The notes beneath the pieces were generated by a model. It was not told where the DNA came from. It saw only the letters and a list, made by a program, of their open reading frames with translations, and made no database searches. 51,398 bases of DNA from Cyanophora paradoxa CCMP329 (lineage: Eukaryota; Plantae; Glaucophyta). Position numbers and translations under genes: made by a program. Every line of letters starts with the position of its first letter. Position 1 is the stretch's first letter. Below are positions 30,172-50,941 of this stretch, one piece after another. Where the stretch lies: contig QPMI01000669.1 of the NCBI GenBank assembly GCA_004431415.1, positions 1 to 51,398 of the forward strand, written 5' to 3'.

Positions 30172-30996
30172 ATGGGCAGAGGGTGGATCCCGGGGCAGGG
30201 GAAGCTGGGCCTGTCGTACGAGTGCCGGGCGGAGTGGCCGGCGGCGGAAATCGCGGCGGCGGGCCCCGAGAACATCCGCGTGCTCGAGCTCGGCGGCAAC
30301 AGGCTCACGAGCATCCAGGGGGCCGAGCTCGCTAAGCTGACGAACCTGGAGGTGCTGTGGTTGCACGACAACCTGCTGACGGCGCTGCCGCCGGAGATCG
30401 GCCGCCTCGCCGCCCTGCAAAAGCTGGCCGTGGAAGGCAACAGGCTGACGGCGCTGCCGCCGGAGATCGGCCGCCTCGCCGCCCTGCGGGGGCTGCGGCT
30501 GGGCCAGCTGACGGCACTCCCGCCGGAGATCGGCTGCCTCGCCGCCCTCAAATGGCTGTACGTCGGCGGCAGCCATGGCCAGCTGACGGCGCTCCCCCCG
30601 GAGATCGGGCGCCTCGCTGCATTGGAGACGCTCTGGTTCGGCTCGCAGCAGCTGACGGCGCTGCCGCCGGAGATCGGCCGCCTTGTGTCCCTGCGGCAGC
30701 TGCGCGTGCACAACAATCAGCTGACGGCGCTGCCTCCCGAGATCGGCCGCCTCGCAGCCTTGCAGACGTTGGACGTGAGCCACAACCAGCTTACGGCGCT
30801 GCCGCCGGAGATCGGCGGCCTTGCCGCCCTACGGTACCTCTACGCCCACGGCAACCCCGTCGTGGACTCGTGGCCCGAGCCCGTCCGCCATACCGTCAAC
30901 CAGAATGACGGGGAGTTCAAGAAGCAGGGGAGTGCTCAGTGCGCCGCCGTCGTTCTGTTCCTGCGCTCCCTCCCCGTACCCGTCTCCGCCGCCGCG
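30172..30996 (+). CDS. LRR protein, paralog of 2237-3776 (LRR exon; downstream exons uncertain)
   Basis: Same N-cap (MGRGWIP..RAEWPAAEIAAAGPENIRVL) and C-cap (NPVVDSWPEPVR) but more LRR units. Same phase-0 gtgcgccc donor at 30997. Confidence 0.9.
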
Positions 30997-31782
30997 GTGC
31001 GCCCCGCAGCCCCGCGCCGCCTCTGTGCCGCGCCCTCAAGCCCCTCACTCCCCTCCGCAGCCGTCCGTCGCCCCGCCCGCCCCGCGCCCTCCCGCCACCC
31101 TGGTCGCCCCGGCCCCGGGTCCGCCGCCCCTCGAGCTCTCCCCCGCGCGCTCGAACGAACGTCCCGCCCTGAACTCCGCCCCCCCCCCCCCCCCCCCCCT
31201 TTCAGTCCCCCCTTTCGGTCCCCCCCACTGAAGCCGACAGGAAAGCGTGGGGCTGCGCCGTGAGGTGCTGGACCCTCCTCCCGCCCCCGCCCCCGTCCCC
31301 GCCCCGCCCCCGCCCCGCCCCCGCCCCGCCCCCGCCCCGCCCCCGCCCGCCCCCGCCCCGCCCCCGCCCCGCCCCCGCCTCCCGCCTCCCGCCTCCTGTC
31401 GCCGGTGCTCGTCTCACGCCTTCGCGGCGCAGTTAGGCGTGGACGCCGCGGCGCTCGCCCTCCGCTACGGCGGCGCCCTCGTGGCCGACCGGCCTCGCTC
31501 CTGCCCTCTCCTCTGCCGCCAAGATCGGGGTATGCTCGCCTCTGGTGCCTGTCGATCTGGTCCGCCCCTTTCCTCTTCTCTCCCCCGCCGCCCCCACCCG
31601 CCGCTGATGGGCCGCGAGCTCAAGTCCAAGATCGGGGTACGCTCGCCTCTGGCCCTGCCCCGCCTCCCCCCCCCTTCTCTCCCCCCCTCCGAACCAACCT
31701 TACGGGGCGGGGCGGGCGTGGCGCGCGCAGGAGGGGATGCAGCGCTGCCGGACCTTTCTCTGCTTCCACTTCCACAACTATC

Positions 31783-31950: not shown

Positions 31951-33259
31951 CGCGCGACACCAGAGGTAAGGCAGGCTCGTTGTAAGGCCGCGGCGGCGGG
32001 CGCGGCGGGCTGGCCGCGCTGCCGGTCGGCTTAGCAACGGGGCACGCTCGCACCCGCGTCCGCCGCCGTCCCCGCGCACTGGATGGTGAACTGGGGACGG
32101 CCGCGGCTGCCGCGGCGGCCTGCGCCGGTGATCGCGATCTGCGACTCCCTGCGGCTCGGGCGCACCGGCTCCCGTCTGGTCCCCGATCGACGCGGGGCGG
32201 CCTCCTCCTCCCCCTCCCCCCCCCCCCCCCCCCCCGCGCCCCCCGCAGCGGGACGGGATCCGGACGGGTGCCCTGCGCGCGGGTGCCCGAATTTGGACCA
32301 TATGCGGGCATACGTATACGTATACGTAGGACCCGTAGGGAGAGTTTATTTTTACGTAGTTTCTTTTTTTTCGCTTTGCAATATTAATTGTCTTATAATT
32401 ACATTTCTCACCAATTGCACGCTATAGCTAGTTTTCAAGTTAAACATCGCAGGGGTAGTCAGCCCCGACGCGGGCCCTATCAAATGAAACGATCGATCGC
32501 ACTTGAGCTCGAGAGAACTGCGGGGCCGGCCCTGCGAGGCTGGCCGTGCTATTTACTGCGCTATCTATATATGTACATGTCTAGTCGACGTCATCAAAGA
32601 GCAGATATCCGATGGTCTCAAAAATCGATAATCGGGTAACGCTATAAATACATAATCCCGAATTTAAGTTCCGCAACGGGATCTGGCAGTACTAGAAACG
32701 AAACTGGGATCCCTAGTGGCCCTCGAATCGAAATAAAACAGCCGCCTTCGGCCTCTAAATAAAAACGATCGCGAGCTAACTAGCATGAAACCGGTACCAT
32801 CAAACTGCACTTGACTGTCTGTCTCTTCTCAAAGGGCCGGGGGCGCCCCTACAACTCACCAATGCAACTACAGTACAATCGCTGATCGCCCCGTTCGCTG
32901 ACTGAGAATCCCAATAAGAGTATATATGTGGGCCTTTGTGAAGCGTTGAGCTCTCGAGCTTGCCCCTTCGCTGTCAATGCATTGTTAACCCTCGGAGGTT
33001 GCATGAGTCACGCGTCGCGGAGGTTTGGGTGTTATATTGCGATCAGGTACACGCTGCACTAACAGGGGGGCTAGCACTAACCGACGCGGGGAGTAACAGC
33101 CGGTGTACCCCTCGGGGGGCCTCCCGGCCTCTAACGATGCTCAGGCTCTAACTGAATGCTGTACCCCCCGCTGTTACTGCCCGAACCTTCCGAACTTGCG
33201 TAATTCGGCCTCGCCCTGTACCCAGTGGCTGGTGTCGTCCATCCATTCGCGTACCTCCC

Positions 33260-34641
33260 TCTGACGCTTGAGTGACTCACGCTGCTCGGGGGTAGGGGAG
33301 GGGGGCCTTCGAGGCGGGGTGGGGAAGGGGGTACGGTGGCAAAATTCAGCCACTCGGGGGTATGCCGAATTCGCCGTGAACGATCCTCTGCGGTGTGAAA
33401 TACCGGTCGCTGCTCACGGCCAAGTGGAAGAACGCGCTCCTGAGCCCGGAGAGGAAGCGTGGTTGCATGAATGGCTGCTGGAGGGACTCGTCGCGCCAGG
33501 GGGCTACGAAATCAATGATACGCTGCTGTACCTGCGCGGGCAGGGCAAGGATCTGGCTCTTGCGGTTCGCAAAGGCCGTCCACAGCGCTTGCAGGTCGGC
33601 CCAATCGCCGTTCAGATCCCTGCGTTCGCGCCTCAGGTACGATCTCGGGTTCTCTGTCATACCCATCAAGCCCGCGGCCCTGATCATCTCCCTGTCCGGG
33701 AGCTCTCGCTCGTCGTGGAATTCGTCTCTAATCCAGCGCACAAGGTAGAGCACGCGCTCCATGAAGTTCTCCGCCGGCGAGCCGCCCCTGAGGACGTGCG
33801 CCTCCCCTCCAGCACTGCGTTCGCATCCTCCAAGTCCACGTTCCGCTGTCGAATCTCCCGTCCAGGTCGCCGTTGTTGTACAGCACGTCGGACTCGCGTG
33901 TTCGCGCCATGCTCGCGGCTCGGTGAGAATTTATACCTGTACCCCTACTCGCGGTCGGGGTACCTGTCGCCGGGCATCAGCCTCGCGCGCTTCCGCATCT
34001 CCGCCTCCCCGGGTAGCCAGTTCTTCGGGTCGTTGCTCCACTCCTCCCATTCGCGTATGTCCCGTCTGACGTCACGCGGGGCGGGGGCGTTTATCGTGGG
34101 CGGGCGGGGCTGGCAGGGCCTGGCGCGGGGGGTTGAGGCCCCTGTTCCACGAGTACTCGGGGTACTCTTCCCATCCCAGGGGTACCAGATTCATCGGAAT
34201 TGGCTCAACTTCGAATTGGGGCTTTTTGACGTGATAATCATAGTTTGTGACATACGCCGTCACAGCCGAGCGCAAGCGCGAGAGGTCGCGCAAATTTACG
34301 TCGTCCCATTGCGAGTCCCTTGCCTTCGCGTACCACTCGAGGATTTGCATGCGAATGTGGTCCGGGAGGGTCGAGAGTATGCTGAGCTTGGAGCCCAGGG
34401 CGAACCAGATGCGCTTGAACTCGTCGATAATCCTGCCCTCGTCGTGGCTCCGAACGTAATGGGCCCCGCCAGCGTTGTGATGCGAATCGAGCCACCCTGC
34501 CTGGGCCAGCTCTAGCACCGGCCAGGGTTGGCGCTGTCGATTCGGTCGCGAGGCCCGCTCAACCACCCAGCGTCTAAGGTCCTTGACCTGATCTATGAAC
34601 TGTGCGATCACGTCCTTGGGCGCTTCCTCTGCATCCGACAT
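33260..34641 (-). pseudogene. Hypothetical Trp/Arg-rich protein, disrupted, divergent from YqaJ
   Basis: MSDAEEAPKD.. (34641-34072) continues via frameshifts (DIREWEEWSNDPKNW.., one in-frame TAG ~33945) into ENFMERVLYLVRWIRDEF.. (33762-33346). Possible short GT-AG introns at the 3' end. Confidence 0.5.
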
Positions 34642-34691
34642 TTGTAATTGCACACATCAAGAAATTCTAAACGCTACTGCGAGGCTAAGCT

Positions 34692-35381
34692 ATGCATACC
34701 GATACAGATTGCGAGACTTTGCAACAGGGGAGCGCGGCGTGGCACGCGGCGCGCCGTGAAAAACTAACTGCATCTAATTTTGCGGCTGCGTGCGGCATAA
34801 ACCCCTGGAAATCCAGGGCCCGCCTGTGGGCGGAGCTAAGCGGGATAGCGGAGGAAAACAACTTTGACAACCCTGCCCTAACCTACGGGCACGACTACGA
34901 GCCCTTCGCGGTCTCTATCTACAAGGCACTGAACGATAACGTTGACATTAAACATACTGGACTGCACGAACATAAAGAAATGCCGTTCCTCGCCGGTAGC
35001 CCCGACGGACTTATAGGAAATGATAGAATTTTAGAGGTGAAATGCCCGTACAAGGGCGAACTTTATGATAGAGTTCCTACTTATTACATGCCGCAGTTAC
35101 AAGGACTTCTGGACATAACGGGCCGCGAGTGGGCCGAACTTTTTTGCTTCACTCCTCTGCGCGTGCAAACGTGGTACGTCAGGCGCGACGAGAGGTACAT
35201 CGAGCTCATGAGGAAGTGCTTACATCTATTTTGGATGCACGTCAAGGAGGGCACGCCGCCCGAGCCCTACAGCGATCGAATGAAGTTAGAGAACCTCAGC
35301 GAGGAGCAGGCGGCGCTGCGCGAGTTTAAGTCGTACGCCCTCCTCTCAGAGTCTAGGCAGACTACTTCTGTCCCAGGCTAG
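34692..35381 (+). CDS. YqaJ-like viral recombinase / lambda-type exonuclease (PD-(D/E)XK)
   Basis: QGSAAWHAARREKLTASNF, YGHDYEP, FLAGSPDGL, ILEVKCPY, YYMPQLQGLL, FW; intron-less. Confidence 0.95.
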   Translation: MHTDTDCETLQQGSAAWHAARREKLTASNFAAACGINPWKSRARLWAELSGIAEENNFDNPALTYGHDYEPFAVSIYKALNDNVDIKHTGLHEHKEMPFLAGSPDGLIGNDRILEVKCPYKGELYDRVPTYYMPQLQGLLDITGREWAELFCFTPLRVQTWYVRRDERYIELMRKCLHLFWMHVKEGTPPEPYSDRMKLENLSEEQAALREFKSYALLSESRQTTSVPG

Positions 35382-35890
35382 GTCTTTGGAATCTTAATAT
35401 AAATTTTCCGGGGACCCGGGACAGGCCTTGTCGGACATGGCAATGTCAGAACCTTCCCGATCATCTAGATCTATAATGATTCTAGGGAGGGTCCAGACAC
35501 ATCTCTTGTGCGGACCACTTCTGTCCCAGGTCTTTGGAATCTTAATATAAATTTTCCAGGGACCCGGACAGGCCTCGTCGAACAAACCTCTTCATGGGCC
35601 AAGATTTCGTGCATGCATCGGCCGCAGCTCATGCGAAAAATCATGTCTGATCCGATCCTGATCATGACGTCCTGCAAATTGAAGAATCGTCTGACCGGGA
35701 GTGTCCCGGGTCCCTGGAAATTTTATATTAAGATTCCAGAGACCCGGGACAGATCTACCTAGAGGGAACATCCAAAATGCTGTACCCCTCCCACCCCGTG
35801 ATCTTTCGAATTCAATCTGATGGGCCGACCTGAGTGACGGTGTCCTGGGTCCCGGAAAGTTTATATTAAGATTCCAAGGACCTGGGACAA
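35364..35890. repeat. Four 50-bp palindromic units (two forward, two inverted): putative replication origin
   Basis: TGTCCCAGGTCTTTGGAA-TCTTAATATAAATT-TTCCAGGGACCCGGGACA at ~35369(+, 5-nt insertion), 35522(+), 35702(-) and 35841(-). Confidence 0.9.
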
Positions 35891-35955
35891 GAGCAATGCA
35901 TTTTCGCACGACGTTGACATAGCCTGATCACGAGAGAAAAATGTACCCCGATCTA

Positions 35956-38900
35956 TCAAATCCGCCGATGGAGCAGCGAGTAGCAGTCGCAGAACAGATC
36001 TTTCACCTCCAAGTAATCCGGCCCCACGCCAGCCCAGCGCTGCCTTGCTTGGCGCTCTGCAACATCTTCGAGAGTGTCTTCCTTGACCCACGTGATGCAC
36101 TTGCGCTTGCGAGAGCCGGCGCCCTCCTGCCCTTCTCGGGTCCGTTTTTCCCCGGACCGGGCCCGTCTCACCCCCATGTACTTTTCGAGCAGGTACTGAA
36201 TCACCCGCCACGACTGCTGCGCAAGCTTGGCCTTCTCATTGTCCGATGCATCGAGTTTAGGGGCCCGCTCGTCCAGACTCTGCAGCACCGCGTAAGCCTC
36301 CCGGCCCTCCGGTGATGCGAGCGCCGCGTAGGCTTCGTCCGACCAAAGCATACAGCTGTCGCCGGCCAGCTTCTCGTACCCCGGCCCAAAAAGTCGCTTG
36401 AAAAGCTCCGCAACCTTCGAGACCCTGTGGTACTCAGTAGACGAGGCGATCTCGGCCATGTCGCCGCCGCGCTTCAGCACAAGGATGATCCGCGACATCA
36501 GCGGGATCGAGTAGAATGACTTCCACAGCCAGGCCACGTCGCTCTCGGTCAGCGCGCTTGCGTCCTTGGCCAGGAACGCAGCGGTCGCTAGGCGCGCGAG
36601 TGCAGCAACCTTCTCCACGTCGACCTTAGCAAGCGAATCGCGCGAATGCCACCAGGAGTCCAGCAGCATGTACAGTTCGGTGATGTCCAGGGGCGGAGAC
36701 TCGAGTACGTACTTGATCTCGCGCTGCCGCTGCTCCTTCTCCTCTTTCGGCCCCTTGTTTCCCTGATCCTCCGTGACCCGCACGTTCATCACGGCGCAGG
36801 TCGACAGCAGCCGCAGCCGCGCGGCCACGGCGAGGCGCCGCGTCGGCATGCCGGCCCGCCGACTCCCGTGATGGCTCGCCTTCAAGTCCAGATAGCGCTG
36901 CGTGTCTGCAGTGCTAGCTCTCTCATCATCGCTCTCACGCCAGTGCGCGGTCGCCTCGCCCACGCTGACGGAGGGCGCGGACGCGCGGCTCTTGCGCACG
37001 GCGACGAGCAGGTGCTCTCCGCCGGGCGGCTCGCCGCGCCTGCGCAGCTTTCTCACTCGGAACAGCAGCTGCACGATGTCGTCGGCCTCTAGCTGCGCGG
37101 GTTCGGCCTGGAAAACGCCGTAGATCTTGTCAAAGTGCGCTTCCGGAAAGTCCACGCCCGCCCCGAGCGCGGACGTCGCGATGAGCACGTCGCAGGCCTT
37201 GTACGCGCCCTCCTCCGAGACGTCGATCGACACTACGCGGACCGGGCCCTCGTTCGTGAAGCGCACGCTCTTCTCCTTCGCCTGCCCAACGATGAGCCAA
37301 TTGTGAACGGTGCGCCGCTGCCGTCCTCGGCCCTGCCTCGAGCTGAGTCACGTACTGAGCGCCGCCCAGGCTGAGCTGCTCCAGCGCCTGCTTCGAAATC
37401 TTGTCTGCTAGCTCATTCGCCTTGGCCGGCGTCTCCGCGATGATCATGGCCCGCGAGCGCCCAGGTCGGCACTGCACCATGATGTCCTTCTCGACGTGCG
37501 CCGGGCTGTCTGACACGCGCATCTTCCAGTCGCAGGTCCGGCGCGAGTTGTGCAGGAGCCCAAGGCGCGCCCCGCGCTCCAGCGCGGACTCCGCGAGGTA
37601 CGCGAGATCGACCGGCCGGACGAAGCCGTCCATCGCCACGATGCGCGAGGCCTTCATCACGTTTCGCATTAGCTGCACGCAGCGCGCGTTTCGGGCATTG
37701 ACCGCACGCCCATGTGCAGGCCGGCGGGTTCGAGGGTGCCGCTCGAAGTGAGGTGCTTCGTGAGGGAGGAGAGCTCGTCCAGCACGATCATCAGCGGCGC
37801 AGTCGACCAGCCCGCCCAGTCCTCAAGTACCTTGTGCAGCGAGTCGATCGTGATGACGACGCACCTGCACTTCGGATGGCGGTAGCCCCACTTGCCGTGC
37901 GTCCCATTTGAGCTCTCCGGCGGCTTCTGAATGTCCATGTACAGCACGGCGTCCTCAGGCAGGCCCACGTCATCCAGGCGGCGCTTCAGGTCGCGGGAGA
38001 AGGCGCGGCGGCAGGTCAAGAGGATCACGCGCCAGCCCCCCTCGAGGGCTGGCTTCAGGTACGTCTCGATGAGGGCCTGCGTCTTCCCCGTGTTGAGGCC
38101 CGAGCAGATGACGTCGACCTGGGCGGCCCCCGGCTCCAGCGGACCGAACGTGGAGGTGAGCAGCCCTGGATCGCGCGTCAGGTAGTCCGTATCCACGACC
38201 TTCACGCAGTGCGGTGTCAGGCCCGTCGATTCGAGTGCGATCAGGAGCGACGGGAGGGCCACGTCGAGCGCCACGGGCTGGGACGGGTCCGTCACGTAAG
38301 ACGCCGCCGTCTCGCTGCAGCTCCCGTCTCCAGCTCCCCCTCCTGCTCCACCTCGACACCGTGCGCCCGAATCGCGATTCTGAGGGCCGGCGATCCTGGC
38401 TGATCGCTCATCTTCAGGGTGATTGTTCCGTCGGGCTCGACTGCAATGTCTTGAACGCGGCGGGGGTCATTCAGGCTGATCTCAGTGCGCAACGCCGCCC
38501 CGCCCGCCAGATCTCGTCCCTCACCAGCTTGTTCTCGCGCAGGAGGCTCAGGAACCGATCGAAGTCCGGGAGCGGAGCCTGGGCGTCGCCCGTCAAGCTC
38601 AGCGGGGGTGGGGCGGCTCCTTGCGGGGGAGGAGCTCCTGGCGCCGCAGTCCCGAGCAAGCCCCCGAGCTGCGGCGCCCTGCGGCCCTGCGCCACCCCCT
38701 GCGCCGATCCCTGCGTCGGCCCCTGCAGGACGTAGGCTCCTGTGTCGTCCCCCCCGAGCTCCAGGCCGCTAGATGTCCCCAGCAGCCAGGTCGCAAAGGC
38801 GCAGGCCTCCGGGCTCTGCAGGACGTAGGCAGCCTTGAGCCCGTTGTGCGATGTTCGAGAGAAAGTGAGGCCTCCGAAGCTCTCCGCGCATGCACGGGCG

Positions 38901-39120
38901 GCCGCGGTGCTCGTCTCGTCTTCCGCGTCGGAGAAGTGCTTGGACATGATGTGCGGCGGGTGAAAGATACAGAAGACCATTCCGAGATCAGCGCTGCAGA
39001 CCTTCTGGACGCAGACGAGGGGGAAGCGAGTGAAGAAAAGCTCTTCTTGCGGGCTCAGGTCCACGGGAGTTACCCCGGCAGACGGGAGAGTAGACTGTCG
39101 GAGCACGTCGAGGTGGCCAT
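35956..39120 (-). CDS. Herpes UL9-like origin-binding SF2 helicase (~1050 aa, several frameshifts)
   Basis: Ordered motifs SGLNTGKT, LLTCRRAF, VVITIDSLHKV, IVLDELSSLTKHL, RIVAMDG, LIATSALGAGVDF..HFDKIYG and IVQLLFRVR parallel recalled UL9/Herpes_ori_bp motifs (PMGSGKT, VSCRRSF, VQVESLHRV, VLDEV, IIAMDA, VGLSFD..HFD, YQSLGRVR). Spread over ORFs 38471-39106, 38292-38492, 37669-38295, 37130-37678 and 35956-37266. Confidence 0.85.
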
Positions 39121-39299
39121 GCTCTCGGGTTAGGCCTGCTGTTTCGTGTTAGGCTTGGAAAATTTTCAGTGGCACCGGCCGGAAACTGCACACCTTGAGA
39201 ACTCGAACTCGAACTCCAAGGCTCGGTGAATTGGCGCTAGCTGCACTGTCGACGTCGACTGTCGGACCGTCGACGTCGGACTTCGGATGTCTCGTCTTC

Positions 39300-39349
39300 T
39301 GTCCCAGGTCTTTGGAATCTTAATATAAATTTTCCAGGGACCCGGGACA
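39300..39349 (+). repeat. Fifth copy of the 50-bp palindromic unit, upstream of the helicase
   Basis: tgtcccaggtctttggaatcttaatataaattttccagggacccgggaca. Confidence 0.95.
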
Positions 39350-39609
39350 CTCTGGTCTGACGACGCTGCAGCTCGAAGCGCTCAACTGGGTCCGGTTGAC
39401 GGCACACAGGCTATCAGGGTGCCAGGCCTAGCCTAGTACGTAGGCTGACCGTCGGACCAGTACTGGCGGTTCAGTTGAAGCCGAGTACTACTAGCGCTAG
39501 CTATAGCGCCAGCGCTAGCTGTAGGCTAGTACTAGTACTAGATCGAGAGACGGTACGGCGCGCCACAGCTAGCGAGCTCGCGCTCGCTCGCCTTTGCGCT
39601 GAAGCTTAG

Positions 39610-41344
39610 AAAATTTTGGGCTCACGCGGTCGTTCCACGTGTTCTGTCCGGACAACCTGTACCCCAGCTGTCCAGCCAAGTAGTCAGAGCTCTCCAATCC
39701 TGCGGCGCTTGGGCCCGTGCTTCTCAGAGCACTTGATGGAGGCCAGCGTGTGCGTTCTGTGCTCTCGGGGAGCCGCCGCTTCGTTCCCGCCGATGCAGAA
39801 GTGCGTCTCGGTCGGCGACCCCTCTCTCCGCGGAGCGGCTAGCTGGAGAGCTCTCCCGATGCCGCGCGCTTACACTGCGGTGCGCAGGCTCGGTTGCTGT
39901 GGCCGGCAACCTTCGAGAGCTCGATGGCACCCAAGCTGAACCACCTCGCCGCATCGCGGAGGTGCTGGCTCCCTCTTTCGCAGCTCTTTCGCTTACACTT
40001 ACACTTTCGCTAGACCGTGCCGCACAGCCTCGCGCTCATTTCCCCCACGTTCGCAGAACTTCGGCGTCGGCGCAGGTTCCGGGATCTGCGACCGCGCCTC
40101 CCGCAGCTCGAGCCGGCGTCTGCGGCGACCCGCGCATGCATCTAGATCCTATTCTGAAACCCGTGCGTCGATCCGGGTCCCGGGCTCGCGTTCCTGCGCC
40201 TCCCGGACCCTCACACTGCTCCTGTTTGCATCCTAGCTAAGACCTTCCTCGCCCGCAGCCGGTCTCGTCCTCGGCACATTGTGAGCGGCATCAGTGGAGC
40301 TGGAGTTCCGCACTTTATGCAGGCCCGTGCGCCCTTTCCCGCCCCGCCCCGCCCAGCCCCGCCCCGCCTCGCGTGCGCTATAGCTAGCTAACCCTGTCGC
40401 GCGCGCCGCAGAGGGTTCGTAGCCGGAGGGCTCGCAGGCCGCGGCCCGGACACCTCCGCCGCCGTCGGCGCCGACATCGAGAACGGCCGGCTGGACGAGA
40501 CCCTCGCCGGCTTCGGCTCCTGGTGCCGCCCCTACTCCTACAAGCTCGGCGGCGTCTGGCAGACCTACATCCGCGGCATCGTCCCCAAGGCCCCGCTCTC
40601 CCTCGGCGAGAGCCAGCCGGCGCTGGAGGCGATCGCGATCCCCGTCGCCCAGTTCAAGGACCCGGCGCCCGACGTCGGGCCCTTCCTCGTCAAGCCCCAC
40701 ACCAAGGGCAAGGGCAAGCGCACCCGCAACTCGGCGCCGGCCTTCCTCCCGCCCCAGCCCCCCGCCACGGCCCCCCAGCAGCGCCCCGGCCAGCAGCGCA
40801 TCGACGAGATGCTGCCGCGCCAGGTCCGGCCCCGCGTACCCCCCGCCTTCCCTGTACCTCCCTCCCCCTCGCCCCGTTCCTGATCCAAGGGCAGGGTACC
40901 TCGGCCTCCCCCGCGAGCGCCGACGGCCCCAGCCCCGTCCCCGGCCCCGGCCACGTCCTCTCCGCGATCCAGGGCTTCGGGGCCCAGCAGGAGGCCGAGC
41001 GGCAGGCGCTGGCGGCGCGCCAGGCGCGCGAGGCGGAGGCGCGGCGCCAGGGCCGCCGGGCCCAGCGCCTCCAGCGCACCCTCGCCTTCCGCGCCGAGCT
41101 GGAGGCGGGCTTCCGCGCGGATCAGATCGCCGGCGCGGAGGCCTCGGAGCGCTGGCGGGCGTTCGAGGCGGAGACGGCGGGGCTGGCGAAGGGCCTCGGC
41201 TACAGCTACCGGCGCGTGCCCGTGCCCAAGGACTACGCGTCGGCCGCGGCGCTGGAGGCCTCGCGGGCGGAGATCGACGCGGCGGAGGACGTGGTGGCGG
41301 AGACGGAGGCCCACGCCGAGACCTTCCGCCACCTCCACCACTGA
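39610..41344 (+). CDS. Intron-containing hypothetical gene inside the element (5' part degenerate)
   Basis: Exon ~40411-40823 (ADIENGRLDETLAGFGSWCRPYSYKLGGVWQTYIRG..), intron 40824-40894, exon 40895-41344 (coiled coil). Upstream exon-like blocks carry gtgcg donors and a TAG. Confidence 0.5.
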
Positions 41345-41393
41345 GCTCTCCGAGGCGGTATTTTTTCTCAACCCCTTCCAATTCGGTCCCGCG

Positions 41394-41585
41394 ATGGCCT
41401 TCGCTGACAGCTACCCACAGCACTACACCCTTGGAGCCCTCGCCGCGACCCTCACCTGGCTCCTCGGCGGCACCCCCACCGCCTCGGCCGTCATCGGCGT
41501 GGGCTTCGGCTACGCCGCCAAGACCCTCTACGCCCCCGGCTCCGTCTCGATGGCGACGGCCGGCATGCGCCCCGCCGGGCGTTAA
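41394..41585 (+). CDS. Small membrane protein (63 aa)
   Basis: ATG ORF with two short hydrophobic Gly/Ala helices and an upstream TTTTCT motif. Confidence 0.65.
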   Translation: MAFADSYPQHYTLGALAATLTWLLGGTPTASAVIGVGFGYAAKTLYAPGSVSMATAGMRPAGR

Positions 41586-41692
41586 CTCTCCCTTTTCAAA
41601 GTTCCATTCCCCCCTTTCCCTTTTCAAAGTTGCGACGTCCTTTTGAGTCCGTTGGCATTTAAATTTTCTTCATCGTCTGTACACGTCTAAAC

Positions 41693-42186
41693 ATGCCCAA
41701 CGCCGTAGAGAAGCTGTTGTGTACGGTGTTCAAATCGGACTCGCGCTGCAGCAAGATCGGCGAGGCTGCCAAGGGCGGGGCGGGGCGAAGGCCGGCGGCG
41801 GGGCGGAGGGGCCTAAGATAAGGGGCGCGGACCCGGCGCCGCCGGCGCTAAAGTCGATTAAGGCTGCGGGCAAGGGCCGCGGCGTCGGGCCCCTGCCCCT
41901 CGTGGCGATCGCCCGGGCCAGCGCGAGGCGGCGCACGCGGCGACGGCGGCGCTGGCCTCGCAGCAGCAGAGGGAGGGGCGCCGCGCCTGAGCGCCGGCCT
42001 CTGGTCGCAGCCTGCGCCCGCGCGCGAGTACGGCGTCAGCGCTTACTTCGACGGCGCGAACGAGCTGAGCCGCCAGGAGATCTGGGCCTGGAGGCGCGGC
42101 GCGCGGTCGACGGGCACCTGCCGTTGCTCGTGGCGCTCGGCGGCTCGCTCCTCATGGTCTGGTACCTGCGCGGCTTCGCGATTTAG
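41693..42186 (+). CDS. Small protein with C-terminal transmembrane helix (frameshifted)
   Basis: MPNAVEKLLCTVFKSDSRCSKIG...CAREYGVSAYFDGANELSRQEIWAWEARRAVDGHLPLLVALGGSLLMVWYLRGFAI, reconstructed using both duplicate copies. Confidence 0.6.
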
Positions 42187-42215
42187 ATAGATTTTCGAAG
42201 CGCTAGCTAGTAGAG

Positions 42216-42542
42216 ATGAGCTGGCTCGACGCGCTGCTCACCAAGACCTTTGGGCCCAAGGGCGCGCCGCGGCTGCAGTTCGGTGAGCTCAACGCCGCGA
42301 TCGGCGCCACAGTCGAGATGAAGAACCGCGAGAACGTGCTGCGCGGCGACGGAGGCGCGTGGCGGACATTGCGGCGGGCGCGCTGGGCTCCGCACTCACC
42401 GCACCGGGCAAGGCGGGCCGCGCGCTCACGGACGTGGCCGAGCGCTTCTGGCACTGGCTCAAGGTTGCCGTGGTCATCGCCGCAGCGGTTGTGGCGGGTC
42501 TCCTGGTGCTCGAGGCTCGCGCGCTATTTTCTAAACGCTAGG
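42216..42542 (+). CDS. Small membrane protein (108 aa; intact copy at 45579-45905)
   Basis: MSWLDALLTKTF...WHWLKVAVVIAAAVVAGLLVLEAR; copy 1 has a 1-nt deletion. Confidence 0.7.
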
Positions 42543-42557
42543 TAAAGCGAGCGAACC

Positions 42558-42960
42558 ATGCCCCGCGGCGGCTCTTCCCCCGTGTCTCCTTCGCTGAGAA
42601 CGAAGTCGCCGCTACCCCCTGGAGCCCGGCGTCAAGCTGGAGCGCGCGAACGCAGTCTCCGTCAAGAAGGCCAAGCGCGCGCTGGTTCTAGAAGTCCCCA
42701 AGACCGCCTCGCAGTTCCTTCCCACGTCCGAGTACGACGGCACGGAAGATACGGAGAAGGTTGCATTCAACAAGCGCAAGACGTACAAGGCGATACGCGA
42801 GGGCCAGCTGCTGCCCACGGACGCGGTTCCCGGGCTGCCGGGCACCACGGCCGGCGAGCTGCTCGTGCGCAACCTGCGCCTGCAGTACGTCTCCCGCCTC
42901 CGCCGCTCCAAGGCCAAGAAGGCGCGCCTGGACTCGGGCGATAGCAGCTCTAGCTCGTAG
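42558..42960 (+). CDS. Basic hypothetical protein (copy at 45922-46325; frameshifted near the start)
   Basis: Strong GC3 frame VSFAENEV..VKLERANAVSVKKAKRALVLEVPKT..LVRNLRLQYVSRLRRSKAKK, with ATTTTCTA upstream. Confidence 0.6.
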
Positions 42961-42976
42961 GGCTCTGTACTCAATA

Positions 42977-43261
42977 CTACCAGTTCCTGTTCCTATCCCA
43001 GAGCACGACTCGGGTAAAGGGCACGGTCATAGCGAACATGAACTCGGCAAACTTGGAGAAGTTCATGAGGGTCCCTAGGCGCGGGTCCTCCCAGTAGATA
43101 GCTTCGCGCAGGGACTCGTAGATGCGCATGAGGGAGCGCTCGTTCTCGGTCGCGAAGGCGTCGGAGGGCTCGTCGGGATCCGGATCCGAGAGCTCCGAGT
43201 ACTCGTCCGAGCTGCCAGCGCTCTCGACGCCTGCGGCCGGGTCGGGCGAGGGGTCAGCCAT
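42977..43261 (-). CDS. Small acidic protein resembling a small giant-virus protein family (copy at ~46342-46624)
   Basis: Acidic N-terminus, then SLMRIYESLREAIYWEDPRLGTLMNFSKFAEFMF. Family resemblance is from memory only. Confidence 0.6.
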   Translation of the reverse strand: MADPSPDPAAGVESAGSSDEYSELSDPDPDEPSDAFATENERSLMRIYESLREAIYWEDPRLGTLMNFSKFAEFMFAMTVPFTRVVLWDRNRNW

Positions 43262-43287
43262 TCTTTGCTGGTAGAAGGGCTAGAAAA

Positions 43288-43625
43288 TCACGGGCGCCGG
43301 TACTCCATCGAGTCGCCGCGCCAGTACTTGTTGCCGGAGGCGAGCAGCTTCATCGGCTCGCCCGTCGAGTCGTGCGTCCAGGCCTCGCCCGTCCAGACGG
43401 CCGTGCCGCGTCCTCTAGCTTGAGGCGGTGGCCCGCCTCGAGCCGATCGCCGTTGAGCATGCGCCGGCCATGAGCGCCAGGTCCCACTCGGTGAGGCCGC
43501 GCTGCTCTTCGGGGTGAGGCCGCGCTCGACGCGCTCGGGCTGGCGCGCCTCGCGCTCCATGCGGCTGAGGCCCACAGGAAGAAGATCGGCAGCGCAAAGG
43601 CCATGAGATCTAGCAGGGCCTCCAT
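43288..43625 (-). CDS. Small protein with N-terminal membrane anchor (copy at 46651-46988; frameshifted)
   Basis: MEALLDLMAFALPIFFLVGLSRM...GHRLKLEDGGTAVWTGEAWTHDSTGEP, reconstructed from both copies. Confidence 0.6.
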
Positions 43626-43635
43626 TGGGCAAGAC

Positions 43636-43925
43636 TTAGAAAAGGTTCCGGGCCAGGCCCGAGAGCTGCGGGCCCAGGCGCCGGGCGGCGTAGTAGAGCG
43701 CGGCGGCCGCGGCGGCCAGGATCAGAAGGCGCGGCGGGCCGCGCGCGGGCTCCTCCAGGGTCAAGTCCACGGTCTCTGGCTCGCGGCCGGCGTCGCCAGG
43801 ATCTCGGGCTCGGAGCTAAGGACTTGGGCCCGCGGCGGCGGCGCTGCTTGGGGCGGAGGCGCGGCGGCGGCGGAGAGAAGGTCCTCGGGCTCCTGCTTGA
43901 TACCTGCGCAGTCAGTAAAGTCCAT
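43636..43925 (-). CDS. Small protein with C-terminal transmembrane helix (copy at ~46999-47289)
   Basis: MDFTDCAGIKQEPED...DLTLEEPA..LLILAAAAAALYYAARRLGPQLSGLARNLF*; frameshifted. Confidence 0.55.
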
Positions 43926-43991
43926 GCTTGCTGGGTACCTCGGAAAATTGTGGGAGGTGCCCGGCGGCTGCGAACGTAGGATGGGGGAGAA

Positions 43992-44556
43992 GTGACGCGG
44001 ACGCGAATACGTCATAGTCGAATACGTCATAGTCCAAAACCTGGACTCGGGACTCGGCCCGGGCCCTGGGGAGGGGTACATGTTATGTCCAAATGTCCAA
44101 ATGTCCAAATGTCCAAATGTCCAATTGAAAGGTTGCGGAGGTTGCGGACGCGTCACAAATACGTCATAGTCGAATACGTCATAGTCCAAAACCTGGACTT
44201 GGGACCTGGGCCAGACTCTCGCCAAGTTTCAAATAATAATACTGTACCCCTGTTATCTGCAAGCTTATCTTATCGTTATCGTGTCACCTATCCTATCCCG
44301 ATCCTATCGCTATCCTTTCGCGATCGCTTGACTACACTATTGCATTCATTGCTTTTGAATGTAGTTAATGTCATAGCAACTTGAACATGATGTCATGATG
44401 ATTTCAAGTTAAATACCGGGGTACGGTGTTTTTGTTCAAGTCTCTTTTTTTTACCGGCAGGGCCCGGCCGAGTCCCGAGTCCAGGTTTTGGACTATGACG
44501 TATTCGACTATGACGTATTTGTGACGCGTCCGCAACCTCCGCAACCTTTCAGTTAA
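43992..44556. repeat. Inverted-repeat regulatory/origin-like region (copy at 47358-47925; single arm at ~48712-48788)
   Basis: Unit (AATACGTCATAGTC)x2-CAAAACCTGGACTYGGGAC at 44006(+), 44158(+) and 44472-44520(-). (TGTCCAAA)x5 at 44086-44125. An AT-rich ~230-bp centre lies between the long inverted arms. Confidence 0.9.
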
Positions 44557-47500
44557 TTAATTAAGCACTGGGCTAGCGCTAGGCTAGCTAGATATCGATA
44601 CCAGCTAGCTAGCTCAGCTCTACCCTGCCCAAGTTGATGGTATCTAGCAGCGCCTGCTCCTCTAAGTCTGCACCGCCTCCTCCTAGCGCTAGCGCTAGCT
44701 CGATACCGCCTCCAGACTTGATCTCCCTTGGCTTCAGCCACCGAAGGGGCTCAGGCCACCTCCTCCTGGTGAAGCCGGTATCGTTGCGCTTGTCCAGCTT
44801 GAGGTAGCGGTAGGGCGCCGGCGCCGGCCAGTCGGGCCTGTGGCTGCTGGCCTCCTTGGCTATGTCCTTGGGCCTACGCGGAAGCAGGTCGGCCTTGGCC
44901 TTGGCCTTCTGCAGAGGGCCCAGCGCCTTGAACTTCGGTGCCTTCGTCGCCGGCAGGGCCTTCGGCTGAGGCTTCGGTGCCTTCTGCGCCTTCGTCTTCG
45001 GCTGCGGCTGCGGCTTTAGCTGCTTCGATTTCGGCATACTTCTTGCTCATAAATGAGAAAAGCGCCTCGAAGTCGGCTTTTATCTCCTCCTTGGTCCAGG
45101 AGGACTCGCGCTGCAGCAAGATCGGCGAGGCTGCCAAGGGCGGGGGCGGGGCGAAGGCCGGCGGCGGGGCGGAGGGCCTAAGATAAGGGCGCGACCCGGC
45201 GCCGCCGGCGCTAAAGTCGATTAAGGCTGCGGGCAAGGGCCGCGGCGTCGGGCCCTGCCCCTCGTGGCGATCGCCCCGGCCAGCGCGAGGCGGCGCACGC
45301 GGCGACGGCGGCGCTGGCCTCGCAGCAGCAGAGGGAGGGGCGCCGCGCCTGAGCGCCGGCCTCTGGTCGCAGCCTGCGCCCGCGCGCGAGTACGGCGTCA
45401 GCGCTTACTTCGACGGCGCGAACGAGCTGAGCCGCCAGGAGATCTGGGCCTGGGAGGCGCGGCGCGCGGTCGACGGGCACCTGCCGTTGCTCGTGGCGCT
45501 CGGCGGCTCGCTCCTCATGGTCTGGTACCTGCGCGGCTTCGCGATTTAGATAGATTTTCGAAGCGCTAGCTAGTAGAGATGAGCTGGCTCGACGCGCTGC
45601 TCACCAAGACCTTTTGGCCCAAGGGCGCGCCGCGGCTGCAGTTCGGTGAGCTCAACGCCGCGATCGGCGCCACAGTCGAGATGAAGAACCGCGAGAACGT
45701 GCTGCGCGGCGACGGAGGCGCGTGGGCGGACATTGCGGCGGGCGCGCTGGGCTCCGCACTCACCGCACCGGGCAAGGCGGGCCGCGCGCTCACGGACGTG
45801 GCCGAGCGCTTCTGGCACTGGCTCAAGGTTGCCGTGGTCATCGCCGCAGCGGTTGTGGCGGGTCTCCTGGTGCTCGAGGCTCGCGCGCTATTTTCTAAAC
45901 GCTAGGTAAAGCGAGCGAACCATGCCCCGCGGCGGCTCTTCCCCCGTGTCTCCTTCGCTGAGAACGAAGTCGCCGCTACCCCCCTGGAGCCCGGCGTCAA
46001 GCTGGAGCGCGCGAACGCAGTCTCCGTCAAGAAGGCCAAGCGCGCGCTGGTTCTAGAAGTCCCCAAGACCGCCTCGCAGTTCCTTCCCACGTCCGAGTAC
46101 GACGGCACGGAAGATACGGAGAAGGTTGCATTCAACAAGCGCAAGACGTACAAGGCGATACGCGAGGGCCAGCTGCTGCCCACGGACGCGGTTCCCGGGC
46201 TGCCGGGCACCACGGCCGGCGAGCTGCTCGTGCGCAACCTGCGCCTGCAGTACGTCTCCCGCCTCCGCCGCTCCAAGGCCAAGAAGGCGCGCCTGGACTC
46301 GGGCGATAGCAGCTCTAGCTCGTAGGGCTCTGTACTCAATACTACCAGTTCCTGTTCCTATCCCAGAGCACGACTCGGGTAAAGGGCACGGTCATAGCGA
46401 ACATGAACTCGGCAAACTTGGAGAAGTTCATGAGGGTCCCTAGGCGCGGGTCCTCCCAGTAGATAGCTTCGCGCAGGGACTCGTAGATGCGCATGAGGAG
46501 CGCTCGTTCTCGGTCGCGAAGGCGTCGGAGGGCTCGTCGGGATCCGGATCCGAGAGCTCCGAGTACTCGTCCGAGCTGCCAGCGCTCTCGACGCCTGCGG
46601 CCGGGTCGGGCGAGGGTCAGCCATTCTTTGCTGGTAGAAGGGCTAGAAAATCACGGGCGCCGGTACTCCATCGAGTCGCCGCGCCAGTACTTGTTGCCGG
46701 AGGCGAGCAGCTTCATCGGCTCGCCCGTCGAGTCGTGCGTCCAGGCCTCGCCCGTCCAGACGGCCGTGCCGCCGTCCTCTAGCTTGAGGCGGTGGCCCGC
46801 CTCGAGCGATCGCCGTTGAGCATGCGGCCGGCCATGAGCGCCAGGTCCCACTCGTGAGGCCGCGCTGCTCTTCGGGGTGAGGCCGCGCTCGACGCGCTCG
46901 GCTGGCGCGCCTCGCGCTCCATGCGGCTGAGGCCCACCAGGAAGAAGATCGGCAGCGCAAAGGCCATGAGATCTAGCAGGGCCTCCATTGGGCAAGACTT
47001 AGAAAAGGTTCCGGGCCAGGCCGAGAGCTGCGGCCCAGGCGCCGGGCGGCGTAGTAGAGCGCGGCGGCCGCGGCGGCCAGGATCAGAAGGCGCGGCGGCC
47101 GCGCGCGGGCTCCTCCAGGGTCAAGTCCACGGTCTCTGGCTCGCGGGCCGGCGTCGCCAGGATCTCGGGCTCGGAGCTAAGGGACTTGGGCCCGCGGCGG
47201 CGGCGCTGCTTGGGGGCGGAGGCGGCGGCGGCGGCGGAGAGAAGGTCCTCGGGCTCCTGCTTGATACCTGCGCAGTCAGTAAAGTCCATGCTTGCTGGGT
47301 ACCTCGGAAAATTGTGGGAGGTGCCCGGCGGCTGCGAACGTAGGATGGGGGGAGAAGTGACGCGGACGCGAATACGTCATAGTCGAATACGTCATAGTCC
47401 AAAACCTGGACTCGGGACTCGGCCCGGGCCCTGGGGAGGGGGGTACATGTTATGTCCAAATGTCCAAATGTCCAAATGTCCAAATGTCCAATTGAAAGGT

Positions 47501-47929
47501 TGCGGAGGTTGCGGACGCGTCACAAATACGTCATAGTCGAATACGTCATAGTCCAAAACCTGGACTTGGGACCTGGGCCCAGACTCTCGCCAAGTTTCAA
47601 ATAATAATACTGTACCCCTGTTATCTGCAAGCTTATCTTATCGTTATCGTGTCACCTATCCTATCCCGATCCTATCGCTATCCTTTCGCGATCGCTTGAC
47701 TACACTATTGCATTCATTGCTTTTGAATGTAGTTAATGTCATAGCAACTTGAACATGATGTCATGATGATTTCAAGTTAAATTACCGGGTACGGTGTTTT
47801 TGTTCAAGTCTCTTTTTTTTACCGGCAGGGCCCGGGCCGAGTCCCGAGTCCAGGTTTTGGACTATGACGTATTCGACTATGACGTATTTGTGACGCGTCC
47901 GCAACCTCCGCAACCTTTCAGTTAATTAA

Positions 47930-48642
47930 TTAAGCACTGGGCTAGCGCTAGGCTAGCTAGATATTCGATACCAGCTAGCTAGCTCAGCTCTACCCTGCCC
48001 AAGTTGATGGTATCTAGCAGCGCCTGCTCCTCTAAGTCTGCACCGCCTCCTCCTAGCGCTAGCGCTAGCTCGATACCGCCTCCAGACTTGATCTCCCTTG
48101 CTTCAGCCACCGAAGGGCTCAGGCCACCTCCTCCTGGTGAAGCCGGTATCGTTGCGCTTGTCCAGCTTGAGGTAGCGGTAGGGCGCCGGCGCCGGCCAGT
48201 CGGGCCTGTGGCTGCTGGCCTCCTTGGCTATGTCCTTGGGCCTACGCGGAAGCAGGTCGGCCTTGGCCTTGGCCTTCTGCAGAGGGCCCAGCGCCTTGAA
48301 CTTCGGTGCCTTCGTCGCCGCAGGGCCTTCGGCTGAGGCTTCGGTGCCTTCTGCGCCTTCGTCTTCGGCTGCGGCTGCGGCTTTAGCTGCTTCGATTTCG
48401 GCATACTTCTTGCTCATAAATGAGAAAAGCGCCTCGAAGTCGGCTTTTATCTCCTCCTTGGTCCAGGATGTCATCTGAGTCGGGTCACCTGAGAACGGCG
48501 CATCGAACGCCACGTGGAGCGATTTGCAGGCCTGAGCTATCATTGGCTCCGGCCAGGCCAGCTCGATCAGCTGAAGGTAGATACTGAGGGCCTTGTCGAG
48601 CTTGGCGCCCTGGGAGACTAGCTGGGAGATGGCGGGCTCCAT
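47930..48642 (-). CDS. Hypothetical protein (5'-truncated copy at 44561-45101); 3' end carries TAG hypermutation
   Basis: MEPAISQLVSQGAKLDKALSIYLQLIELAWPE...RYLKLDKRNDTGFTRRRWPEP.. Confidence 0.65.
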
Positions 48643-48877
48643 GGTACTGGATTAAGCAGCTAGCCGGGGTTCAGAAAATGGCGCCAAGTCGAGCTTATTT
48701 TTTACCGGCGGGGCCTGGGCCGAGTCCCGAGTCCAGGTTTTGGACTATGACGTATTCGACTATGACGTATTCGCGTCCGCGTCACTTCCCCCCCCTCTTC
48801 AGGTGAGCGCTCACCTGACCCTCACCTGAACGGCCTCAAAACCGCAGCCGCGCCGCGCCCTCGCTCACACTTCACAG

Positions 48878-49150
48878 CCAAGAGAAATCAAGAATGTGCG
48901 CCCCAAGTACGAGACCTGCTGCCTGACCTTCGGCATCTTCGAGTACGAGGCCATGGACGAGGATCTCGACGAGAACGGCGAGATCTGCTTCAACTACTGC
49001 AGGCTGCTGCGCAACATCTCGCTGGAGTGCCGCAAGGGCGACTGCTTCCAGCACATCATGCTCAATCCCGCAAGAACGAGATCACCCTGTACGCCTCGCC
49101 AGCCCCAGCGCCAGATTTAGACTCTCGATATTCGCGTAGCCGTGATTGAG
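48878..49150 (+). CDS. Small Cys-containing beta-rich hypothetical protein, possibly with a spliced 5' end
   Basis: EIKNVRPKYETCCLTFGIFEYEAMDEDLDENGEICFNYCRLLRNISLECRKGDCFQHIML..EITLY. No in-frame ATG at the start, but a candidate intron 48803-48877 (gtgagc..ctcac..cag). Confidence 0.55.
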
Positions 49151-49290: not shown

Positions 49291-50065
49291 ATGCCACCGT
49301 CCGCAACGCCACCGAGATCGACCCCGCCAAGCTCGCCTTCGAAATGATGCCAACGCCGCATCAAGGCCAAGTACGACGGCCTGCAGGGCCTCATGATGTA
49401 CGCGCGCCATGTCACGATCAACCCGTGCATCACACCGAGCAAGGCAAGGCGTGAGCGACGAGAAAAGGCCTTCGTCATGGAAGAAAACGGCGGATTTTAC
49501 ACGCTGGACTCACCGATCTCAGCGCCGTCGACGGCCAGACGAACCCAGCCGCGGACGAGTTCCTCAAGCTGCTGGAGGCCCTGGACGCGAAATTCTGCGA
49601 GTTCGTGCAGCAGAACCAGGCCAAGCTCAAGGTCTCGCCGGGCGCGCCCTCTCCAAGGATCAGATCTCGGTGCTGCAGACGCCCAGCGTGCGCATCAAGG
49701 TCGACAAGGAGTCGGGCCAGGCCTTCTACAAGTACTCAACATGCGCATCCGCACGCAGACGATGGCGGGCAAGCGCAAGACGATCCCAGTCGTCGACATG
49801 TCCAACTACCTCATCACGAGCGCGCCACCATCGCACCGGAGACCTGGTGGCGGCCCTCGTTAAATCGACACCGCCTACGCCATCCCGAGGGCAAGTTCGC
49901 TCAAGTGGTCCTTCCTCGCCGTGCAGCAGTGCAAGGTCGGCGCCTTTCGCTTCGCCGCGCACGCCCGAGCTGGCCTTCAAGCCCTACGACAACGAGGCCG
50001 ATTTCGAGCCCTACCTAAACCCCGAGTCTATGTACACCACCCCATGCAGTAGTTTAGACGAATAA
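49291..50065 (+). CDS. T7 gp2.5-like / NCLDV-type OB-fold ssDNA-binding protein (many frameshifts)
   Basis: Reconstructed: EIDPAKLAFE..EFLKLLEALDAKFCEFVQQN..LSKDQISVLQTPSVR..LNMRI..IPVVD..GDLVAALVKID.AY..KF.LKWSFLAVQ, with an acidic tail. Confidence 0.65.
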
Positions 50066-50104
50066 ATGAAATTCTCTGGTGCAATTGATTACAAGCGTTT
50101 ACAA

Positions 50105-50906
50105 TCAGAGGCCGTTGAACTTGCCGCCCACCGCCCTGGGCTCCGCCGCCGTCGAGGCCGCCGCCTCCGTCACCTCCTTCATCATCTCCGGGTTCGCGTT
50201 GGCCGCGTGCACCGCCAGCACCGTCTGCACCAGGGCCATCCCCAGGCGCGCCTCGGGCCCCAGGGTCACGTAGCGCGAGTACTTAATCACCAGCTCCTCT
50301 AAGATCGGCTGCACCTGGTCCATGGAAGAGAGCGTCGCCTGCCCGAGCCCGTCTAACTTCAGGCCGATCGGATCGTACGCTTTGTTAAGGTGCTCCAGCG
50401 AGTGCATGCCCGCGATCAGAAAGAGGCGCGCCGCCTCCAGCGAACCCCGCGTGCTCAGCTCGCGCTGAATTTCCTCGTACTCTTCCTTCAGCTCGTCCAG
50501 CGGCGTGGCGAGGCTCAGCTTCTTCGTGGACGTCAGCTCGCCCCCGAACGAGCGCCTGTACTGCGCGATCTGCCGCAGAACCTGCTTCTTCTCGTCCACG
50601 TCCACCTGCGCCTCGTCGCGCGGCCTCTCCTGCAGGTCGATCCCCAGCGCCTTTTCACGCTCTGCTCCTTCTTCTTCGTCATTTCGATGTGCTCCTGCAC
50701 GCTGAAGCTCGCGCCCTTGCTCGGCGCCGTCGGCGGCACCGTGGGCCCGTCGCCCGGTAGCGACGTCTGTCGGCCTTCGGCGCCTTCTCGCCCTTTTCCT
50801 TGCCTTCCTTCGCGGGGCGGCCCTTCTTCCGAGGCTGCGGGATCCCCACCGGGTTCGGCCCGTCCACGGCCAGCGCGTCGAAGCCCAGCATCGCCGAGGG
50901 GTCCAT
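50105..50906 (-). CDS. Conserved Nucleocytoviricota helical protein (recalled as DUF5767-like), frameshifted N-terminal half
   Basis: LDELKEEYEEI..FLIAGMHSLEHLNKAYDPIGLKLDGLGQ..LEELVIKY..LGPEARLGMAL..HAAN matches the recalled pattern 'IEFLN..FDPF.IKLDGWSE...FEEL.EKY...PE.KL...H..N'. Confidence 0.75.
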
Positions 50907-50941
50907 GGTTACGCTTGCCCCTTAGAAATTTCCTCGGATTT

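Follow-up and report, generated by a model that had tools for sequence, protein, structure and literature searches.

The window analyzed here is the whole stretch of 51,398 nucleotides from the glaucophyte Cyanophora paradoxa CCMP329 (assembly GCA_004431415.1, contig QPMI01000669.1, positions 1 to 51,398). Its left 33 kb resemble a GC-rich eukaryote, with a leucine-rich-repeat (LRR) gene and kinase-like pieces seen by eye, while the remainder, which extends to the window end and is incomplete at the right, is likely a multi-copy endogenous small DNA virus (hereafter the element). Within this element, the gene for a UL9-like superfamily 2 (SF2) helicase has five 50-bp palindromes around it, which we number as copies 1-5 of the unit (P1-P5), together with a palindrome of a second type (Q). 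On balance, we favor the interpretation that the palindromes and the helicase form a cognate initiator-origin pair, in which the sites are the predicted docking and replication start points. The features of the locus are as follows:

34692..35381, + strand: YqaJ-like nuclease gene of the lambda-exonuclease family (Pfam YqaJ E 2.7e-28; TIGR03033 E 2e-27)
35369..35423, + strand: palindrome P1 (unit 35369/35374-35423), left arm split by 5 additional bases
35444..35499, no strand assigned: palindrome Q, 15-bp arms with 12/15 paired, 26-bp AT-rich spacer
35522..35570, + strand: palindrome P2, forward copy
35702..35751, - strand: palindrome P3, reverse copy, with the highest symmetry among the copies
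35841..35889, - strand: palindrome P4, reverse copy, 66 bp past the helicase stop codon
35956..39120, - strand: UL9-like SF2 helicase gene of ~1,050 codons, frameshifted near 38500, 38340, 37690 and 37330-37300
35959..36927, - strand: predicted C-terminal domain, a helical bundle followed by a helix and beta-hairpin wing, resembling the UL9 origin-binding domain
38474..39120, - strand: N-terminal domain, possibly a degenerate archaeo-eukaryotic primase (AEP), aligned by eye
39300..39349, + strand: palindrome P5, forward copy, beginning 180 bp upstream of the helicase ATG (39120)

All five copies lie where an initial annotation of this DNA had placed them: P1-P4 occupy the interval in which the YqaJ and helicase genes converge, in the order forward-forward-reverse-reverse (F-F-R-R), and P5 stands before the helicase ATG. 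The centre-to-centre spacing of P1-P5 is 147.5, 180.5, 138.5 and 3459.5 bp, so that the ~140-180 bp given in that annotation for P1-P4 holds (138.5-180.5 bp). Each unit had been described there as 18-bp arms around a 14-bp spacer; recounting the 18-bp arms of P5 returned the same 3/18 mismatched positions, but the unit is better drawn with an 18-bp AT core between GC-rich arms of 16 bp. This core is A or T at 17/18 positions (16/18 in P4); ranked by nearest-neighbour energy, the 18-mers of lowest stability in 32930-51398 are these five cores. Outside the five loci, the 50-mer closest to P5 in the window has 22 mismatches, compared with 20 for the best of 100 shuffles. P5 and P3 match in inverted orientation over 67 bp at 91%, and the 1-base gaps that the assembly shows in P2 and P4 are contradicted by contigs of 3/3 DNA runs. 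Q, which was overlooked at first, is a different and degenerate palindrome between P1 and P2; several sister contigs, read by eye, carry this type in an intact 49-bp form after YqaJ.

The position of the array between two gene ends raises the question of a role in RNA. P1 overlaps the YqaJ stop codon, which falls inside it, and P4 follows the helicase stop by 66 bp, each in the sense of its gene; moreover, the sense-strand RNA hairpins of the palindromes are stable (z -2.9 to -8.0), and one RNA-like contig stops at 35853 within P4, although contigs of this kind cannot show ends. The palindromes could thus be oriented transcript 3'-end hairpins of the kind used in mimivirus polyadenylation, with the forward copies ending the YqaJ mRNA and the reverse copies the helicase mRNA. 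Hairpin termination is described in mimivirus (PMC4402537). We hold this reading to be decidedly unlikely, considering that P5 has no upstream gene to terminate, that the convergent pairs 42960/42977 and 50065/50105 have no such hairpin, and that the sequence of mimivirus hairpins is not conserved, unlike that of the nearly identical cores in the window. Furthermore, RNA-like contigs from two studies contain GT-AG joints on the + strand, antisense to the helicase (36705-36799, 37009-37062 and 37135-37195), as well as a CT-AC joint at 35157-35223 on the - strand, antisense to YqaJ, which points to transcription from both strands in the region of the array. No run is recorded as RNA and the contigs show neither transcript ends nor strand, but the joints are missing from the DNA runs where these were tabulated; the antisense transcripts are possibly related to silencing. 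Across copies, 84% of cells are paired and double changes do not exceed those in shuffles (81/500); these pairing statistics cannot tell hairpin from duplex recognition. Rfam returned 0 matches in 32000-51398.

The helicase and its predicted DNA-binding domain

In the assembly, the helicase gene is split over four out-of-frame pieces. One contig in 2/2 DNA runs matches 37758-39325 and differs there by 6 gaps and 0 substitutions; because of this and of the contradicted gaps in P2 and P4, the frameshifts most likely stem from errors in the assembly and not from decay. The piece with the Walker A and B motifs matches Pfam Herpes_ori_bp (E 1.6e-8; 33.6 bits against a cut-off of 20; profile positions 42-160 of 820), and when the helicase family profile was compared with the sequences in the PDB, UL9 chains were the sole matches below E 0.001 (E 4e-4). 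The family itself appears isolated in sequence space, since HMMER returned only 5 proteins from 1.84 billion representatives for the helicase relative P0002 (42-59% identical), all of the same family, and a profile search with the family returned 12, of which 12/12 have EukProt identifiers of one style. P0002 had no phage match. The gene model P0012 combines a 45579-like gene and a helicase in one orientation, and other copies of the element are therefore arranged differently. At the N-terminus, we noted by eye a stretch resembling motif II, saw no DxD and obtained no Pfam match; judging from sequence, this domain may be a degenerate AEP.

A model of the full-length protein was poor (pLDDT 41.5) and matched only generic helicases. 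The model of the C-terminal domain was better (323 residues, pLDDT 73), and its comparison with solved structures gave two UL9 entries at Z 7.3 and 6.3, with the next unrelated entry at 4.1. The best of these, chain 9hgi_B of OBP, the origin-binding protein of herpes simplex virus 1 (HSV-1), aligned over 184 residues (Z 7.3, root-mean-square deviation 4.5), covering UL9 residues 547-825, a range that spans the DNA-contacting subdomain at 745-810 (PMC12543377). A wider structure search likewise placed the UL9 origin-binding domain at rank 1 of 48,161 (Z 5.7 vs 4.6 for the next), and in BFVD the model matched origin-binding proteins of giant viruses (probability 1.0, TM about 0.4). A profile search of the C-terminal domain against PDB sequences gave 0 matches. 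We therefore agree with the initial annotation in calling the helicase UL9-like, as its lobes match Herpes_ori_bp and HSV-1 UL9 and its predicted C-terminal fold, of the UL9 DNA-binding type, is nearest to UL9. The models suggest a protein that is like UL9 in architecture, yet distinct from the UL9 of herpesviruses, and that would recognise a different sequence.

Linkage of the sites to the helicase and the proposed origin

To relate sites and genes, we used sequencing depth. The stretch was detected in 20/24 listed sequencing runs, and depths are given for one run, X1, in which the summed depth is no copy number (according to the warning of the tool itself), so that ratios are rough. Six helicase positions had depths of 3,717-4,830, and the P1 and Q-P2 positions had similar depths of ~3,200-4,600 (8,093 in one bin of overlapping copies), while YqaJ reached 5,666-20,943. 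On these depths, the P type matches the helicase clade in abundance, and not YqaJ. P3, P4 and the spacers had depths of 520-1,240. Loose contig ends at the palindromes lead into few contexts, namely the flanks of P5 itself, a single sister flank that follows a P1-like unit, and a variant whose P is broken. The majority of YqaJ copies seem to have sites of the Q type, presumably along with a helicase that is more distant, such as P0002. Indirectly, and with sister copies seen only in part, the depth pattern fits a cassette of gene plus sites and speaks against a miniature inverted-repeat transposable element (MITE) of the host. That the 50-mer is such a MITE, or another dispersed host repeat, inserted in the element by chance is hardly credible: MITEs typically have short inverted repeats, but the 32.9-kb host flank contains no copy, and P3, P4 and the spacers stay at subfamily depth with few contexts at loose ends. 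The dispersal that the initial annotation had named as fatal to its proposal is thus not what we found in the host flank and the run contigs.

A cassette could also be mobile. P3 and P5 flank the helicase gene in inverted orientation, most YqaJ-bearing copies seem from their depths to hold another helicase type (such as P0002), and the gene arrangement of P0012 differs from that of the window; accordingly, the palindromes could act as terminal inverted repeats or as sites of recombination, through which the helicase cassette inverts or is exchanged between virus copies. We consider this very improbable, as Pfam scans found no recombinase in the window and no inversion at the palindromes appears among the joints listed. 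Tyrosine-recombinase sites have a core of 6-8 bp, which a core of 14-18 bp does not fit. Recombination and an origin function can coexist.

Further evidence comes from CyRepA1, the replication protein of cyanobacterial plasmids (PMC9978351, PMC10899382, PMC10079941). The CyRepA1 model NF042913 matches the helicase relatives at 55-58 bits over profile positions 3-292 of 595 (cut-off 200; E 6e-15 for P0002), and hhalign aligns CyRepA1 with the helicase family at 95% (E 2e-8); judged by these sequence comparisons, the helicase lobes of the two are homologous. Slr7037, a CyRepA1 protein, is required for replication of pSYSA, with a replicon of 3,566 bp (PMC9978351). We scanned for palindromes 5 of 14 CyRepA1 plasmid matches, all Nostocales loci, together with pSYSA (L007), using a scan that recovers only 2/5 of the window copies and is hence insensitive. 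In 4/5 Nostocales loci, a palindrome with GC arms and an AT core lies 273-275 bp before the rep stop, compared with shuffle means of 0-0.05. The palindromes in the 3' part of the CyRepA1 genes are:

L002:5288-5343
L003:5289-5342
L005:5579-5628 (changed on both arms in step, by eye)
L006:5290-5341
L004:5263-5308 (loose setting)

This conserved Nostocales palindrome is a candidate plasmid origin.

A different class of explanation is that the palindromes serve another viral or host protein, either as enhancer and origin arrays like the homologous regions (hrs) of baculoviruses or as stem-loops nicked by an HUH nuclease for rolling-circle replication, with the helicase acting only downstream. Several observations are compatible with this. 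Every mriyavirus studied encodes an HUH nuclease (PMC11253617), baculovirus hrs, too, consist of imperfect palindromes in arrays that serve as origins and enhancers, P3 can fold into an 18-bp hairpin (z -7.8), and the element has a second oriented repeat family around another gene (see below). The palindrome loop also resembles the CRESS nonanucleotide with two mismatches. Five nick sites in both orientations, however, fit one rolling-circle origin poorly, and the double changes in pairing do not rise above shuffles (81/500). Pfam found no HUH gene in the window, which holds part of the element (the scanned open reading frames are frameshifted). Considering in addition that the palindromes bracket the sole gene with a domain of the origin-binding type and match its abundance, we regard recognition by another protein as unlikely.

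We favor the initiator-origin pair because the predicted C-terminal fold best matches the HSV-1 OBP domain, because inverted GC-rich arms flank an 18-bp AT core as in oriS, because site depth follows the helicase clade and palindrome flanks are few, and because the homolog CyRepA1 combines a replication role with a GC-arm/AT-core palindrome in 4/5 Nostocales loci. A number of points weigh on the other side. With regard to the domain, Z scores of 5.7-7.3 are within the range that the tool calls common for helical folds; a Foldseek search of the PDB with the C-terminal model gave no match below E 0.001 and no UL9 chain among the top rows listed; UL9 of human herpesvirus 6 reached only 0.2-0.3 in BFVD; and the RVKNL motif is missing from P0001-P0030 and from the C-terminal domain in the window. 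With regard to the sites, the HSV box GTTCGCAC is in none of the palindromes of the window (one 7-base partial box lies at 35903, and 8 more in the host flank), and the F-F-R-R order also agrees with the directions of the convergent gene pair, something an origin would not require. Giant viruses share the C-terminal domain without known origins, and mriyaviruses are proposed to initiate replication by an HUH nuclease (PMC11253617). Among the plasmids, the four positive loci are related Nostocales and amount to about one observation; L004 passes only at the loose setting, where shuffles average 2.8 matches; and pSYSA, the sole experimentally mapped CyRepA1 replicon, has 0 palindromes at both scan settings. 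Finally, queries of IMG/VR with the helicase, DUF5767 and YqaJ confirmed no related element that includes flanking DNA.

If helicase and palindromes do form an initiator-origin pair, replication could proceed as follows, where we infer every step beyond the fold prediction. C-terminal domains of the helicase would bind both GC-rich arms of a site and the 18-bp AT core would melt, upon which the open strand would be loaded with a single-stranded-DNA-binding protein (SSB) and the helicase, and the DNA would be copied by polymerases of the host. This scheme follows the example of UL9, ICP8 and oriS. The P1-P4 cluster would be the main origin, and P5 a second origin or a looping partner. The helicase gene and its sites would travel together as a replication cassette. 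We also entertain, tentatively and without quite expecting it to hold, that the UL9-oriS design is general: in small relatives of nucleocytoviruses and in cyanobacterial plasmids alike, UL9-like initiators would recognise palindromes with GC arms and an AT core that lie at or within their own genes, with gene and sites exchanged as a cassette.

The rest of the element

The remaining features that we annotated are:

32921..32950, no strand assigned: left border of the multi-copy element (approximate), where depth climbs from host level
39158..39165, - strand: likely helicase promoter core, an ATTTTC-like motif judged by eye
43980-44066, 44123-44214, 44447-44554, 47347-47431, 47490-47582, 47815-47923, 48698-48797: oriented copies of a second repeat family
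49291..50065, + strand: candidate SSB gene, heavily frameshifted, read from a three-frame translation
50105..50908, - strand: DUF5767 gene (Pfam E 2.8e-13; 90% cluster with 22 members)
33104, 33160, 33938, 35781, 35942, 39658, 44073, 44243, 47440, 47611: positions of the 8-mer TGTACCCC

In X1, the host-flank contig 32251-32950 had a depth of 97, and the bins to its right 440-18,000, with ~490-540 for contigs particular to the window copy and 3,400-5,400 for sister variants. Because of this jump over the host flank, we place the start of the element near 32921-32950 and consider it to be multi-copy with several subfamilies. Host LRR-repeat genes lie at 30172-31263, immediately left of the border, and at about 3128-3817. 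The capsid, packaging ATPase and VLTF3 genes of the mriyavirus clade were not found in the window, in which the element is cut at its right end.

With regard to gene content and expression, the initial annotation fared less well than for the helicase and sites, apart from its YqaJ call, which is secure (Pfam E 2.7e-28). Its P5 operator, by which the helicase would regulate its own gene, is weakened by a distance of about 135 bp between P5 and the likely promoter core; most of the element genes inspected by eye are preceded by an ATTTTC-like motif at a distance of ~15-50 bases. Its compact module of helicase, SSB and exonuclease is weak as well, given that the SSB candidate has no confirming match and lies 10 kb away, outside the feature. 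This putative SSB may have the look of those of T7 and of nucleocytoplasmic large DNA viruses; searches on its fragments gave no supporting Pfam or atlas match, and it is ~10 kb from the sites. DUF5767 is associated with large DNA viruses. It is not mentioned in the mriyavirus supplementary files searched. Three relatives of it (P0021, P0024 and P0025; 65-81% identity) are on ENA and Logan contigs, from which we conclude that related viruses exist in other samples, while a DUF5767 query of JGI metagenomes confirmed no related locus. The palindrome patterns had 0 matches in IMG/VR and 1 in JGI (L001), an unrelated metagenome contig with two inverted copies of a 52-bp palindrome (1731-1781 and 1903-1954) with window-like arms. 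We took this match as chance, because its spacer is GC-rich and it shows no similarity to the window DNA or to the 30 collected proteins.

The element contains a 3.4-kb tandem duplication (41737-45101 vs 45102-48468, 98.9% identity), either real or an assembly artefact. The second repeat family has oriented copies of ~85 bp with a 16-bp tandem core (GACTATGACGTATTC twice). Without the tandem duplication, its order is F-F-R, the uncharacterised gene 48103-48642 on the - strand, and R; this gene is thus bracketed by a repeat family of its own, like the helicase gene. The 8-mer TGTACCCC occurs 10 times in the element, close to its left end and to both repeat clusters, vs 5 times in the host flank, which is longer.

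Comparison with known systems

Among the closest parallels to the proposed pair is HSV-1 UL9 with oriS (PMC12543377, PMC13261067). Both have an SF2 helicase of the Herpes_ori_bp type with a C-terminal domain of similar predicted fold, both have inverted GC-rich sites around an AT core of 18 bp (in 5/5 window copies, and in oriS according to PMC13261067), and both have several copies of the site per genome. Unlike in HSV-1, the sites in the window bracket the helicase gene itself, no Box 3 was seen at them, the helicase has an additional N-terminal domain, and its C-terminal domain has about 9% identity to that of UL9 and no RVKNL motif. Neither ICP8 nor a viral polymerase was seen in the window. 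The baculovirus hrs are likewise arrays of imperfect palindromes between genes that act as origins and enhancers. They are scattered around the genome and are read by IE1, not by an origin-binding helicase.

Among viruses with related helicases, an N-terminal AEP-like region joined to a UL9-like helicase is found, as may be the case in the window, in the SF2 helicase of Yaraviridae (Mriyaviricetes), mimivirus R8, pF1055L (gene F1055L) of African swine fever virus (ASFV) and the SmDNAV primase-helicase (PMC11253617; bioRxiv 10.64898/2026.08.29.747986). Yaraviridae-type elements are also small virus-like elements with a PDDEXK/YqaJ nuclease, and the origin-binding proteins of giant viruses match the C-terminal domain of the window helicase in BFVD. 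The primase motifs, in contrast, look degenerate by eye in the window, and none of these proteins was among the HMMER matches to P0002 from sequence alone. The available parts of PMC11253617 and bioRxiv 10.64898/2026.08.29.747986 name no binding sites or origins for Yaraviridae-type helicases and favor HUH rolling-circle initiation. The novelty that the initial annotation had claimed is thus narrower than it first appeared, as UL9-like helicases outside herpesviruses were already known; its other half stands, in that we found no description of a DNA site for those of giant viruses, mriyaviruses or cyanobacterial plasmids in the literature covered, which leaves out subscription journals and preprint supplements. 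How replication starts in polymerase-less small relatives of giant viruses has so far only been proposed. If the tentative reading of a general design is true, the element would be the first such virus with a mapped cognate origin, and would have an alternative to HUH rolling-circle initiation. The locus offers a defined target of 50 bp together with a predicted binding domain, each of which has natural variants in sister copies.

CyRepA1 differs from the element helicase in its DUF3854 N-terminus and its bacterial plasmid context, and the helicase relatives fall below the NF042913 cut-off; there is one site inside the Nostocales gene, vs five outside the gene in the window, and none found in pSYSA. 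What the two systems have in common is homologous helicase lobes, a role in plasmid replication on the CyRepA1 side, and a Nostocales palindrome near the 3' end of the gene. If the design is indeed shared, the unmapped origin of the Nostocales plasmids would be the palindrome within their CyRepA1 genes, and culturable Nostoc plasmids hold this parallel site.

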